A stretch of DNA of 64,000 nucleotides, taken from assembly GCA_009783305.1 (NCBI GenBank), contig WRHJ01000002.1:87097-151096 (forward strand). Direction: 5' to 3'. Origin of the DNA: Candidatus Saccharimonadota bacterium. Its GTDB lineage: Bacteria; Patescibacteriota; Saccharimonadia; Saccharimonadales; Saccharimonadaceae. The notes under the pieces were generated by a model. The model was not told the origin of the DNA. It searched no databases and worked only from the letters and a program-made list of their open reading frames with translations. Made by a program: the position numbers and the translations under genes. Shown piece after piece: positions 4,019 through 32,791 of this stretch (position 1 is the stretch's first letter; every line of letters begins with the position of its first letter).

Positions 4019-5014
4019 ATGAAGACCTATCTGCTCGGACACGATGCCCATGGTGATGCTCGACTTTTACCATCTGCCCCGTCGGATTGCGAAAGGATTA
4101 TTATAGCCGGAGATATGGTCGCCAATCGTCCGTCAATCTCGGTCGATCCAGACTCATGGTTTCAAATTGTCAAATATTATTTTGGCATGGGCAGCAAACA
4201 AGGCGCACTTGGCAATGGTTTCCTCTCGTCCGCACACGCCGAAGCCGGCATGCAGGTCGCTCTCCGCGACATCTGCGGCGACGCCCAGTACCAAAGGATA
4301 TCGAAATGGGTCAATATTGCCACTATTCGTGGACGATCCCCATCACCATATCCACGACCCAAACACAACGGTGTTTACTTCTCGTGGTTAGCCAAACAAG
4401 CCCCAAATCTTCGTAGCTGGATTCATAGTCAAGTTGCGGATAGCAACTCAGAAATGGTCGATAAGATGGTTCAACAATGGCAAAATGCTCAAATTATACT
4501 CATCAAAGGTAATGGCGAGTATGGGTCCATGCTCGGATATGCCGTAGACGATCCGCATAATTGGAATCAAGAAGTGTTGGCCGATTGCGACCCTCTTATA
4601 GAACCATTTTTGCAGTACGCCAAGTGTTATGGCTGGACCATTGTAGATGACAAGCCGCTCAAGCTTGACGATATCGACGCTACTCTCCTTGGAGAGGGTT
4701 GGTTTCGTTGGGCCAAAACCATGCTGGAAGCCGACCAGATCGACTGTATTATCGACAGTATCCCGACCGCCAGCAGGTTGATTACGCATTATCCGCCGCT
4801 GTTCGACCCAAAATGGTACAAAGATGTCAAAAATTCTCCAAATCTGCCAAATCAAATAACACAAGACTTTGGTAAAATCGTCGATCTTATTCTGGACCTA
4901 ATGGACTTTACTCAACTAACTTGTGCTCATTTGCACAACAGGCACGACGTGGAAGAATATTATCTATCCACAGATATCCGCATTATGGGCTTAGGCTCCA
5001 TCTGCAGCATCTAA
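4019..5014 (+). CDS. Hypothetical protein, degenerate calcineurin-like metallophosphoesterase pattern
   Basis: Start set at MKTYLLG (ATG 4019) behind GAGGTG. Motif-like strings: LLGHDAHGD, IIAGDMV, IKGNGE, CAHLHNRHD. Confidence 0.5.
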   Translation: MKTYLLGHDAHGDARLLPSAPSDCERIIIAGDMVANRPSISVDPDSWFQIVKYYFGMGSKQGALGNGFLSSAHAEAGMQVALRDICGDAQYQRISKWVNIATIRGRSPSPYPRPKHNGVYFSWLAKQAPNLRSWIHSQVADSNSEMVDKMVQQWQNAQIILIKGNGEYGSMLGYAVDDPHNWNQEVLADCDPLIEPFLQYAKCYGWTIVDDKPLKLDDIDATLLGEGWFRWAKTMLEADQIDCIIDSIPTASRLITHYPPLFDPKWYKDVKNSPNLPNQITQDFGKIVDLILDLMDFTQLTCAHLHNRHDVEEYYLSTDIRIMGLGSICSI

Positions 5015-5069: not shown

Positions 5070-6119
5070 ATGGAAAAAGACACTTTCGATTACGAATCAA
5101 CCTCGCCAGACAGAATCGAGCAATGCCACGCGCTGCTAGACAACTGGCTAGATCAATTCCAAGAACAATCATCAACTGAACCACTTGAACAGTCCAAATT
5201 TCTCCTCATGGAAAACCATCTCCGCGCCGTCGTTGACAATATGGAAACCCTCGCCGACATCGCCGAAGTCAGCGAAGAGGACAAGGCCATCGCTGTCTTT
5301 ATTGCCACCATGCATGACAAATCTCGTCTTACCCAAGCTCTCATCGGCGACGAAGATAGCAAGGATCAAATCAATGGTCGTCCCCATGCCGCTATGAGCG
5401 CCATCCAGGCTCTCGGCAAGGGCAAAGCACACGAAATGTTGCAAGATAAGCTTTGGGGTCTTTCAGAAGACGACGCTCGCTGGGAGACCATCATGAACGG
5501 CGTAGGGCAGGGCATTGCCTATGAATTATTCCCTGATTTAACCGAAGGCGACGAAACTTGGGGCTGCCTTTTCCACGGCATATCCTTGCATATGTATCCC
5601 AAAGACGGCGTCGAGTTGTCAGATCTAGACTATCTTACGGACCGCGAAAGATTCTTTCTCGACCTCACCGTCAACGCCGATGCCGCCGCTAACTTGTCGC
5701 ACAAGTTTACCGACCCGGATCTCACCGAGCACCTCATGATCGTCAACGGGCACACCTTAGACGAACTCATCAATTCTCAAATTTCCCCAGACGTGCTCCG
5801 GCACGCCCTCGAAAAAAATGCCCCCATCGATTACAAAATCATTACCCATGACAACCGTAATCAAAACGCTGCCGATTGGTTCGTAGCCTGGATGTTGCAC
5901 GTCCACGGTGTCACTAGCCCCGATGTCGCCGCCGCCTTGCTCGACAAGGGCAGTCTAGCCACTATGGCAGAAATCGTCGACTATACCGACGCCGACACCC
6001 GCGCCCAAATGCAACAAGTATCTGCCAAATGTATCGCCCATCTCGAAAAAGTCAAAGCTCAAAAATACCCAGAAGAGTTCCCCTCAAGCTTTAACGCCCC
6101 GCTTCCTCAATCTGCCTAA
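5070..6119 (+). CDS. Hypothetical acidic protein (possible HD-type phosphohydrolase fold)
   Basis: Long ORF with codon usage like its neighbours. Only a weak H...HD-like string (FIATMHDKSR). Confidence 0.5.
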   Translation: MEKDTFDYESTSPDRIEQCHALLDNWLDQFQEQSSTEPLEQSKFLLMENHLRAVVDNMETLADIAEVSEEDKAIAVFIATMHDKSRLTQALIGDEDSKDQINGRPHAAMSAIQALGKGKAHEMLQDKLWGLSEDDARWETIMNGVGQGIAYELFPDLTEGDETWGCLFHGISLHMYPKDGVELSDLDYLTDRERFFLDLTVNADAAANLSHKFTDPDLTEHLMIVNGHTLDELINSQISPDVLRHALEKNAPIDYKIITHDNRNQNAADWFVAWMLHVHGVTSPDVAAALLDKGSLATMAEIVDYTDADTRAQMQQVSAKCIAHLEKVKAQKYPEEFPSSFNAPLPQSA

Positions 6120-30093: not shown

Positions 30094-30732
30094 ATGGAAG
30101 ACAACATTGCTATTATCAAAAATTGGCTCGGCAGCGGCAGCATCAATATTTTTGGCTTGCCCCTATCTGGCAAAGACACTGTTGGCATCAAGCTGGCCGA
30201 AGCTCTTGGCGGCAAATACTTATCTTCCGGCGTCATCCTGCGCGCCGCAGAACCAACCAACCAAGCCGTCCGCGACAATCTTGCCATCGGCCTCTGGGCT
30301 CCAACCGATCAATTCTATGATCTAGTCTTGCCTTATTTTGATCGAGAAGACCTCAACGGCCTACCCCTTACGCTTGGCGCCATTGGCCGCTGGAGCGGGG
30401 AAGAACAAACTATTATAAATTACGCCAAGTCAGCCGGACACGAAATCAAAGCCGCAATTCTCCTCAATATCTCTGAAGCTGATATCCACGCCCGTTGGGA
30501 ACAACTGCACATCTTGCAGGATCGCGGTACCCGCACTGACGACAAAGACGTCAAAGCCCTCAACAACCGCGTCAATGAATTCAAGACCAAAACCATGCCT
30601 GTCATCCAAACTTACCGTGATCTCGGTATCCTTATCCCCGTCAATGCCGATCAAAGCAGAGAGGCTGTTTACACTGAAGTCGTCCAAAAACTCGCCGATT
30701 TCGCCCTCAACACCCCCGTCGAGCAATCTTAA
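30094..30732 (+). CDS. Adenylate kinase-like nucleoside monophosphate kinase with a divergent P-loop
   Basis: GLPLSGKDT (compare GAPGAGKGT), YLSSGVILRAA (compare ISTGDMLRAA), LGAIGRW (compare LDGFPRT). Confidence 0.6.
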   Translation: MEDNIAIIKNWLGSGSINIFGLPLSGKDTVGIKLAEALGGKYLSSGVILRAAEPTNQAVRDNLAIGLWAPTDQFYDLVLPYFDREDLNGLPLTLGAIGRWSGEEQTIINYAKSAGHEIKAAILLNISEADIHARWEQLHILQDRGTRTDDKDVKALNNRVNEFKTKTMPVIQTYRDLGILIPVNADQSREAVYTEVVQKLADFALNTPVEQS

Positions 30733-31694
30733 TCTCGCTTCAACATCACCGTAAACGCTTCGGCTGGAATATCTACCTTCCCGAAACGTTTCATCCTTGC
30801 CTTGCCTTTTTTCTGCTTTGCCAATAATTTCTTCTTACGCGACACATCGCCGCCATACAAATAACCTGTCACATCCTTACGATATGCCCCAATCGTTTCA
30901 CGCGCAATAAATCGCGCCCCGATTGCCGCTTGTAATGCCACCTCAAAATTTTGCCGGGGAATTACTTCTTTTAATTTTTTCGTCACCACGCGTCCCAGCG
31001 CCTCCGCCTCAGAACGGTGCGCCATCACCGACAACGCATCTACTCGTTCTCCAGCCACATAAAAATCTACCCGCACCAAATCCTCCGCCCGATAATCCTG
31101 TAGCTCATAATTAAACGAACCGTAACCAGACGTCGAAGACTTTAATTGATCATAAAAATCCGTCAACAAATTCGCCATCGGCGCCTCAAAATCAATAATT
31201 GCCCGATCATCCATGTAGGACAGACTTTTTTGCCGTCCACGTTTCATAATAATCAAATCCAATACTGCGCCCACATAACTTTTCGGCACAATAATCTCGC
31301 CCTTTACCCACGGTTCGCGAATTTCTTCCACCTTCGTAATATCCGGCAAATCCGAAGCCGACTTGATGTCCAATTCTTCACCTGAACTCAACTTCACATG
31401 ATAATCCGTCGACGGATTTGTCACCACCAAATCTAGATCAAACTCCCGTTCCAACCGCTCGCGAATAATATCTAGATGCAGCAGTCCCAAAAACCCAATC
31501 CTAAGGCCAAAACCCAATACTGGCGAATTCTCCGGCTCAAACCGCAGTGCCGAATCACTCAACGCCAATCGTTCCACCGCCTCTTTCAAATCCGCATACT
31601 GGTCGTTACTCACCGGGAAAAATCCCGCATACACAAACGGCCTCACGTTCTTATACCCCGGCAACGGCTCAACGATTACGCGCGGCTCACTCAT
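30729..31694 (-). CDS. lepA: Elongation factor 4 (LepA), C-terminal fragment (domains III, V, CTD)
   Basis: PLPGYKNVRPFVYAGFFPV...LGFLGLLHLDI...YDQLKSSTSGYGSF...KKLLAKQKKGKARMK. This matches LepA from about residue 280 onward. Confidence 0.85.
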   Translation of the reverse strand: MSEPRVIVEPLPGYKNVRPFVYAGFFPVSNDQYADLKEAVERLALSDSALRFEPENSPVLGFGLRIGFLGLLHLDIIRERLEREFDLDLVVTNPSTDYHVKLSSGEELDIKSASDLPDITKVEEIREPWVKGEIIVPKSYVGAVLDLIIMKRGRQKSLSYMDDRAIIDFEAPMANLLTDFYDQLKSSTSGYGSFNYELQDYRAEDLVRVDFYVAGERVDALSVMAHRSEAEALGRVVTKKLKEVIPRQNFEVALQAAIGARFIARETIGAYRKDVTGYLYGGDVSRKKKLLAKQKKGKARMKRFGKVDIPAEAFTVMLKRD

Positions 31695-31899
31695 TTTTCT
31701 CCTCTTCTGCTTTCTTCTCCTTCTCCATATCCGCCTTTGCCTTCGCCACCAATTCTTGCATCTCTGCTTCCACCACTTCCGGCGGCCTATTCAATTCATC
31801 TGATTTTTTCTTCATCCTATTTCTCACTATGCCCACCACCAGAAAAGCTCCCACTATGATTGCTACCCCCGTTAGCATTGCCGGCATCAACCCATCCAT
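31687..31899 (-). CDS. 70-aa membrane-anchored charged-helix peptide inserted between the lepA halves
   Basis: One TM (LTGVAIIVGAFLVVGIV) plus a Lys/Glu-rich helix. The start overlaps the upstream stop (TAATG). The stop overlaps the downstream start (ATGAGTGA). Confidence 0.5.
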   Translation of the reverse strand: MDGLMPAMLTGVAIIVGAFLVVGIVRNRMKKKSDELNRPPEVVEAEMQELVAKAKADMEKEKKAEEEKNE

Positions 31900-32735
31900 T
31901 ATTTTGCCTCCTTGAGATACTTCGCTAGCGTTACCGTGTCTCCCACCTTTGCCTCCCTTGTAGTTTTTAAGTTTGTCACAATATATCCAATTTCCCCCGT
32001 CAACAGCTCCGGCTTGGCCACCATTTGCGGCGATAATTTTCCCACCTCCAGCGCAATGCCATTGGCGCTCGCCGCCATCATCCGAATAGTTTCATTTTTC
32101 CGCAAACTCCCATCCACCACCCGCACATACAATACTACTCCGCGATAATCGTCGAAATACGAATCAAAAATTAACGCCCGCAGCGGCCCATCCGCCACCC
32201 CGCTAGGTTCTGGCACCCGCTCCACCACTGCATCCAATACTCCCTCCACCCCCTCGCCGGTCTTGGCCGAAACCTTCAAGATATCCTCAGCCTTGCAGCC
32301 CAATAAATTCACAATCTCCGAGCTCACTTTTTCCACGTTCGCCGCCGGCAGATCAATCTTATTGATCACCGGTACAATCACCAAATTCGCTTCTACTGCC
32401 AAGTACACATTGGCCAAAGTCTGCGCCTGAATCCCCTGGCTAGCGTCCACCACCAACACCGCCCCCTCGCAAGCCGCCAAACTCCGCGATACCTCATAGC
32501 TAAAGTCCACATGCCCCGGCGTATCAATCAAATTCAATTCATAACCCTTATAATTCATCTGCACCGGAGTCAATTTGATTGTGATACCCTTTTCGCGCTC
32601 CAATTCCATCGAATCCAGTAGTTGCGACTTCATCTCACGCTTATCCACCGTTCCGGTTATTTCCATCAATCGGTCCGCCAAAGTCGACTTGCCATGGTCA
32701 ATATGCGCAATAATACAAAAATTCCGTATATTCAT
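31899..32735 (-). CDS. lepA: Elongation factor 4 (LepA), N-terminal fragment (GTPase domain + domain II)
   Basis: [31 protein letters not shown]. It ends after GDTVTLAK, at the domain II/III linker. Confidence 0.9.
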
Positions 32736-32762
32736 TAAGCAATATTATAACATCTTTTCATG

Positions 32763-32791
32763 AAAAACCCGCCTATATAGGCGGGTTTATT
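32763..32791. terminator. Bidirectional intrinsic terminator
   Basis: AAAAACCCGCC-tatata-GGCGGGTTTATT. Confidence 0.7.

Follow-up and report, generated by a model that had tools for sequence, protein, structure and literature searches.

A lepA gene in two pieces around a small membrane-protein gene in a Saccharibacteria genome

In this work, we focus on the organization of lepA, the gene of the GTPase EF4, in a Candidatus Saccharimonadota bacterium. The DNA that was analysed, which we call the window, is a stretch of 64,000 nucleotides (GenBank assembly GCA_009783305.1, contig WRHJ01000002.1, positions 87,097 to 151,096 of the forward strand). It belongs to a genome of 788 kb in seven contigs (G000; the compared loci and genomes are designated Lnnn and Gnnn), which is 98% complete and carries a single lepA. 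Few bacterial proteins are as conserved as EF4, the role of which is still under debate. Candidate phyla radiation (CPR) bacteria retain very few ribosome-associated GTPases, lepA among them (PMC12641178), so that EF4 is probably important to them. In the window, lepA takes the form of two open reading frames (ORFs) between which a third, small one is lodged. We consider it likely that this arrangement is a heritable and selectively maintained fission of lepA at the linker between domains II and III, expressed as one coupled operon of three genes.

The three genes lie on the minus strand. The upstream one, lepA_N (31899..32735), encodes the G domain and domain II of EF4 in 278 aa and ends with a TAA stop, and the downstream one, lepA_C (30729..31694), encodes domains III and V and the LepA C-terminal domain in 321 aa. 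ORF2 (31687..31899), which ends with a TGA stop, separates them and encodes a small membrane protein of 70 aa, recognized through seven homologues and its ratio of nonsynonymous to synonymous substitution rates (dN/dS). The stop of lepA_N overlaps the start of ORF2 in TAATG (31901-31897), and the stop of ORF2 overlaps the start of lepA_C in ATGAGTGA (31694-31687). Each of the two internal starts has a ribosome-binding site embedded in the preceding gene: a Shine-Dalgarno sequence AAGGAGG (31907..31913, minus strand), 7 nt 5' of the ORF2 ATG, within the final lepA_N codons, and a Shine-Dalgarno-like GAGGAG (31699..31704, minus strand), 4 nt 5' of the lepA_C ATG, within the final ORF2 codons. 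The start of lepA_N is devoid of a Shine-Dalgarno site; a TATAAT box resembling a -10 element (32744..32749, minus strand), read from the sequence, stands 8 nt 5' of its ATG and is the putative promoter of the operon. The lepA_N mRNA is probably leaderless or near-leaderless, given this proximity of the TATAAT box and the lack of a Shine-Dalgarno site. A consensus scan found no promoter or terminator within the gap that separates the two halves.

Taken together, the two halves account for nearly a whole EF4. On lepA_N, Pfam recognizes GTP_EFTU (2.7e-59) and GTP_EFTU_D2 (1.3e-10), and on lepA_C it recognizes EFG_C (1.4e-19) and LepA_C (1.2e-42), with a weak EFG_III (0.0036). The TIGR01393 model of lepA is matched by lepA_N over its positions 2-278 and by lepA_C over 281-594, with a joint score of 846.8 bits for a cut-off of 533.9, and therefore almost nothing of lepA is missing. 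Aligned to the E. coli EF4 (3cb4), lepA_N covers residues 3-279, and its G1, G3 and G4 motifs are intact, with NKID readable. The protein is thus encoded by ORFs of 278 and 321 aa rather than as the lone chain of about 600 aa of canonical EF4. Compared with this canonical one-piece EF4/LepA (TIGR01393; structures 3CB4 from E. coli and 2YWE from Aquifex), the domain set and order are alike, and the two-piece EF4 is 78-84% identical to the one-piece EF4 of Saccharibacteria. The differences are that the chain is cut after the equivalent of E. coli residue ~279 with another gene between the pieces, and that the linker of 6 residues has given way to a tail (YLKEAK) and a head (MSEPRVIVEP), both of them new. 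According to a DNA alignment with eight one-piece relatives and to a census of linkers, a stretch of 255 nt made of the N tail, ORF2 and the C head (31665..31919, minus strand) stands in place of the 18-nt linker of the one-piece genes, a net gain of 237 nt. The initial annotation of this DNA, made from its letters, had placed the split at the domain II/III linker, and the Pfam matches and TIGR01393 coordinates agree; the ORF reading likewise confirms the three intact ORFs and their overlaps that it had described.

The samples nearest to the lineage of the window are termite-gut metagenomes, and three other lineages from this environment have a split lepA as well. In L046 and L047, lepA_N (..KKYFEEVR*) is followed by genes for a methyltransferase, His_Phos and def, then by an ORF2 homologue, a 158-aa gene, HD, a 377-aa gene and HD_3, and finally by lepA_C. 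The latter begins with MIEPLPGYK and is followed, as in the window, by an adenylate-kinase-like and a DsbA-like gene. In L051, the ORF2 homologue comes immediately after lepA_N (..AKYFKEVR*) and precedes at least eight further genes. In L041, the order is BacA, lepA_N (..SLKRYFEEGGK*), def, PNPOx, ORF2 homologue, PNPOx, His_Phos and three more genes, and the genes after lepA_N (at least eight) are all start/stop-coupled up to the contig end. The contigs of L041 and L051 end before the C gene. In a tree of concatenated N and C sequences, the window and these three lineages (L041, L046/L047 and L051) form a clade with a support of 99/97. The initial annotation had pointed to relatives sharing the split as the place where the 70-aa ORF should be looked for, and a homologue does lie in the gap of all three of these other lineages. 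Among these split lineages, full-length N-gene pairs give a dN/dS of 0.09-0.13 and the C gene one of 0.07, at dS 0.8-1.2; strong purifying selection, which may be slightly relaxed, has therefore acted on both halves ever since they were separated.

The same break is also found further away. Scanning GTDB contigs with the C gene yielded three loci, with gaps of 1.6 kb and three genes (L063), of 1.5 kb and two methyltransferase-like genes (L064), and of 3.7 kb and five genes including def, HD and PNPOx (L065, a termite-gut metagenome-assembled genome). A class-level sample added the genus g120, in which lepA is split in all four sampled genomes, with gaps of 1.4, 7.8 and 11.4 kb in the three that were fetched (L136-L138). 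The gap of the window, with one gene and full coupling, is the smallest among the loci compared. The gaps of L063, L064, L065 and L136-L138 contain unrelated genes and no ORF2 homologue. The pieces themselves bear a common signature: a Tyr comes straight after ..L(K/A)(K/R) in the N tail of 10 out of 10 split lineages, and the C heads, readable in seven of them, are all of the form M..(I/V)xV(E/Q)PLPGYK. The linkers of one-piece genes have a fixed length of 6 residues and the form xPAxxx in 101 of 103 cases, and split-type tail or head features are found in none of the 103. The head of the window, MSEPRVIVEP, is homologous to MTESRIIVEP of the distant L064 and to MGRVIVEP of L065. This homology with the L064 head implies that tail and head predate the arrival of ORF2, and since six Saccharibacteria genomes have the same break without ORF2, the split is older than ORF2. 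ORF2 did not cut lepA. The initial annotation had presented lepA as split by the small ORF, a claim at odds with these six genomes, where the same break comes with homologous tail and head motifs.

ORF2 encodes a protein with a single hydrophobic helix (approximately residues 4-25), followed by RNRMKKK and then by a conserved charged helix, KPPEVVEAEMQELVAKAKADME; by the positive-inside rule, this charged C-terminal helix should be cytoplasmic. A word-index search returned ORF2 alone, and an exhaustive HMMER protein search was needed to find its seven homologues, of 46-71% identity. The alignment of the eight sequences has 45-64% identity and 12 invariant columns, and the family shares the N-terminal hydrophobic helix, a basic patch and the motif KPPEV.E.E...L...AKA. 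With a dN/dS of 0.18-0.43, and judging from this conserved coding sequence, ORF2 is a real gene. Neither ORF2 nor any of its seven homologues matches a Pfam family above the cut-off, and the sub-threshold likeness is to other single-pass proteins. A single-sequence search in 60 relatives gave only weak matches, which proved to be the N-terminal transmembrane and coiled-coil part of RNase Y and of proteins like it and resemble ORF2 in composition alone; the rny gene of the window's own genome has no DNA or protein match to the insert, and no source of the insert was found elsewhere in this genome at either level. A search with the ORF2 profile in 200 sampled genomes of the organism's taxonomic family gave one confirmed member (G300), with a second, weak match in G434 (E = 1.2e-4), and nothing came out of GTDB contigs when they were scanned for the pattern of this profile.

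The known homologues outside lepA indicate that this small gene travels with its start signals. The ribosome-binding block AAGGAGGTGGAATA-ATG-GATGG accompanies ORF2 homologues in four other contexts, and within operons it encodes the final codons (..KEVE*) of the upstream lepA_N, def, PNPOx or gatA. In L043, gatA and gatB enclose the homologue and, next to it on the gatB side, a 139-aa membrane-protein gene, and in G300 the homologue is upstream of a homologue of that 139-aa gene. The gat operon of the window's genome consists of gatA, a 140-aa gene and gatB, without ORF2, and the only copy of the ORF2 family in this genome is the one inside lepA. In L049, L052 and L053, the homologues are free-standing, with a TATAAT box 7-8 nt from the ATG. 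The 139/140-aa membrane-protein gene between gatA and gatB is itself a recurrent feature of the gatCAB operon (G000:C2:151888-155092, just beyond the window; L043:2604-6126; and, in part, G300). The layout of a TATAAT box 7-8 nt before an ATG devoid of a Shine-Dalgarno site is also recurrent: it is that of lepA_N in the window, of the ORF2 homologues of L049, L052 and L053, and of lepA_C in L136-L138, and this fits frequent leaderless mRNAs in these Saccharibacteria.

Several other explanations of the locus have to be weighed. The genome is a metagenome draft in seven contigs, and the insert could be an artefact of assembly or binning, a chimeric join or foreign DNA. We regard this as extremely unlikely: five public contigs encode an identical 70-aa protein, and in the two that were fetched, a MEGAHIT contig of the European Nucleotide Archive (ENA; 6.2 kb) and a Logan contig (4.0 kb), the locus is 100% identical, so that the same 4-6 kb locus is present in both assemblies. 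Homologous arrangements exist in diverged lineages, and the genome has no second copy of the insert. Another possibility is a recent pseudogenisation, in which an insertion would have broken a dispensable gene whose pieces have not yet decayed. In its favour, PMC4324249 gives lepA as non-essential in E. coli, all the sampled congeners have a one-piece gene, and dN/dS is somewhat above that of one-piece relatives. It is nevertheless very improbable, since four lineages that are dS ~1 apart keep their available halves open with a dN/dS of 0.07-0.13, the start codons and Shine-Dalgarno sites of the C gene are retained in every lineage, and the G1, G3 and G4 motifs are intact; the initial annotation had already argued against simple decay, and these rates bear it out. 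A single chain could also be restored by recoding, either through a bypass of the 204-nt gap from AAA-TAA to AAA-ATG or through two compensating frameshifts through ORF2. The N and C genes share one reading frame (which has about 10 stops across the gap), and an AAA codon stands before the stop of the N gene (AAA-TAA, 31904-31899) as well as before the ATG of the C gene (AAA-ATG, 31697-31692). Such matched take-off and landing codons, with a stop after the take-off, are present, but a chance match is likely in A-rich sequence. In the bypass of T4 gene 60, which spans 50 nt, the frame continuity, the stop after the take-off and the matching codons are alike; the gap of the window is four times longer, codes for a conserved protein that has a ribosome-binding site of its own, and gives no signal of a take-off hairpin, there being neither an excess of RNA structure (z = 0.67) nor an Rfam match. 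The gaps of the other split genes are of 1.4-11.4 kb, their halves are in the same frame in only one of the three loci checked (L063-L065), and a membrane helix between domains II and III of EF4 would be implausible. Recoding thus strikes us as hardly credible.

The explanation that comes closest to the initial annotation makes ORF2 a dedicated partner, which by means of its membrane helix and its charged cytoplasmic helix would tether the EF4 halves at the membrane or unite them there, with the coupled operon setting the stoichiometry. The occurrence of a homologue in each of the four split loci of the termite-gut clade, the position of ORF2 straight after the N gene in the window and in L051, the fact that the sole family copy of this genome is located here, and the purifying selection on ORF2 speak for it. 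E. coli LepA reportedly partitions between membrane and ribosome, and this too would suit such a partner. Against it, the six split genomes L063, L064, L065 and L136-L138 do without ORF2, and homologues exist outside lepA, between gatA and gatB, before the 139-aa gene and free-standing with their own -10 box; the peptide is not dedicated to lepA in the way that the initial annotation had proposed. Furthermore, the position of the homologue in the gap varies, being after def in L046 and between two PNPOx-like genes in L041, and no domain or motif links ORF2 to EF4. A dedicated partnership between EF4 and this peptide, which these data do not support, is in our opinion improbable, and a membrane-anchoring role of ORF2 for EF4 would be pure speculation. 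We rather read ORF2 as mobile cargo in an older split, which would make it neither the cause of the split nor a proven partner of EF4.

There are also observations that weigh against a maintained fission in which ORF2 is a passenger. lepA is in one piece in each of the 36 species sampled from the same GTDB genus, in 24 further families of the order, and in nearly every genome of a 146-genome sample of this order. The halves have a dN/dS 2-3 times as high as the one-piece relatives (~0.02-0.05, from few usable pairs), and some relaxation or change of function is therefore possible. A homologue of ORF2 is found in four out of four split loci of the termite-gut clade, which is awkward for pure cargo, and the association of the two halves into a working EF4 is assumed. 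Finally, a single origin of the split alleles on the lepA tree is rejected: five changes are required (AU test, p = 7.7e-7). Counter to this tree, the tail and head motifs that the split genes have in common speak for common descent. This distribution could stem from an old fission followed by several re-fusions, from repeated fission, or from the transfer of split alleles. Two one-piece linkers have a peculiar aspect: in L120, the sister of the split L065, the linker contains a Met (GDTVT-KEVTMRAAAE-PLPGYK), and in L081 it exceeds the usual length by 19 residues. These two linkers may be re-fusion scars of a gene that was once split.

How the reading of a maintained fission would work can be outlined from what is directly supported, namely the anatomy of the locus, its occurrence in independent assemblies, the shared break, the purifying selection on the halves and on ORF2, and the presence of ORF2 elsewhere. 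A leaderless transcript would probably be driven by the TATAAT box before the lepA_N ATG. Ribosomes ending lepA_N at the TAA of TAATG would reinitiate on ORF2, aided by AAGGAGG, and those ending ORF2 at the TGA of ATGAGTGA would in turn reinitiate on lepA_C, aided by GAGGAG. The two halves of EF4 would then associate non-covalently and act as EF4 on the ribosome. The gap between them would be a slot that takes up different genes in each lineage, occupied here by one cargo gene.

The way in which genes may enter this slot can be read in L046. There, the 158-aa gene that follows the ORF2 homologue starts with MSEPR, the ancestral lepA_C head, and has the same upstream bases (2371-2385). The last cargo gene, HD_3, starts with MIEPL, and the 18 nt gtaATGattgaaccgttg are the same as at the start of the lepA_C that follows (4650-4667 vs 5306-5323). 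From these copies of starts, it appears that incoming genes land at the junction, seize the start already present there and leave a duplicate of it behind. Given this pattern of start capture, the order N, ORF2, C of the window looks near-ancestral and not like the product of a deletion. In the window's genome, a search for the cargo genes of the sister lineages turned up no more than distant paralogues of def and PNPOx and the 140-aa gene, with no sign of relocation. The arrangement of the window is thus probably near the ancestral state of its clade, as far as these few cases can suggest. More tentatively, the lepA break could be a gene-capture slot, in which operons grow by start-codon capture and into which ORF2 would have moved as a mini-gene together with its ribosome-binding site; alternatively, ORF2 could cooperate with the two-piece EF4 at the membrane. 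As for the cargo of the termite-gut loci (L041, L046, L051 and L065), enzymes of nucleotide "house-cleaning" and of small molecules abound in it: NUDIX, Ham1/ITPase-like, YfbR-like HD, His_Phos and PNPOx-like proteins and a second peptide deformylase, several of these names coming from sequence reading rather than domain scans. It also includes a protein of 377-415 aa that is predicted to be membrane-anchored and has no assigned function.

Genes in two pieces are known from other systems, and the comparison with them is informative on the nature of this one. A group I or II intron or another structured RNA was rejected (no Rfam match better than E = 5; fold z = 0.67). A split intein was likewise rejected, as neither piece has a Hint or intein match in Pfam and the tail and head are only 6 and 10 residues long, and so was a split by a homing endonuclease (GIY-YIG, HNH or LAGLIDADG), as ORF2 and its seven homologues have no Pfam match above the cut-off. 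The nrdA gene of phage Aeh1 is said to be split by mobE, a free-standing homing endonuclease gene. What is alike is a conserved gene that persists as two co-oriented ORFs around an intervening gene, with a reassembly that is presumed. The window differs from it by the absence of an endonuclease domain in ORF2, by a gap that holds from one to at least nine unrelated genes according to the lineage, and by an old split in a cellular genome. Natural gene fissions are exemplified by the split genes of Nanoarchaeum equitans and by the cyanobacterial rpoC1/rpoC2. They have in common with the split lepA a cut at a domain boundary, an information-processing protein and a very small genome; what sets the split lepA apart is that the EF4 halves remain neighbours with coupled translation and that the break serves as a slot for insertions.

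A second fission site of lepA exists in some Saccharibacteria, at the boundary between the G domain and domain II (~residue 180), and it yields products of 183 and 408 aa. There, ..IPAPKEI* overlaps in TAATG with the following piece, which begins with MKPLKALIFDSYY.. (also as MKPLKALIFDSYYDDYRG..). In some genomes the two pieces directly adjoin each other, and in others they are separated by one or two genes (e.g. His_Phos or a 329-aa gene); the loci concerned are L068:8165-9942, L139 (G256), L140:864-4318 (G232), L126:5222-7682, L135, L066, L069, L072 and L073. Full-text literature searches returned no published description of a split lepA; a 2025 survey of ribosome-biogenesis factors in CPR bacteria discusses lepA as retained, and the split goes unmentioned. 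What the window adds is the smallest gap, the termite-gut clade, the evidence that ORF2 is mobile cargo, and the second fission site. A natural two-piece EF4 under selection shows that the GTPase/domain II block need not be covalently joined to the domain III/V/C-terminal block, and it offers a ready-made system for probing the action of each block on the ribosome. The variable content of the gap and the reuse of resident start signals bear on the growth of operons in compact genomes. For annotation, a split lepA is easily miscalled as a pseudogene or as a missing lepA.

Some further features of the locus and of the compared loci can be mentioned. Upstream of the operon, a terminator-like hairpin, CCCGCC-TATATA-GGCGGG followed by TTTTT (32763..32785, minus strand), closes the 96-aa ORF that precedes it; it was read by eye and is absent from the listing of a simple scan. 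Among the compared loci, L063 is titled "Acidobacteriota bacterium" and L056 "Lachnospiraceae bacterium" in GTDB, yet their lepA loci are clearly of the Saccharibacteria type, and these titles probably reflect mislabelling or bin contamination. At the other end of the operon, the stop of lepA_C shares 4 nt (30729-30732) with the end of the adenylate-kinase-like gene that converges on it (30094..30732, plus strand), which leaves no space for a terminator between these two genes.

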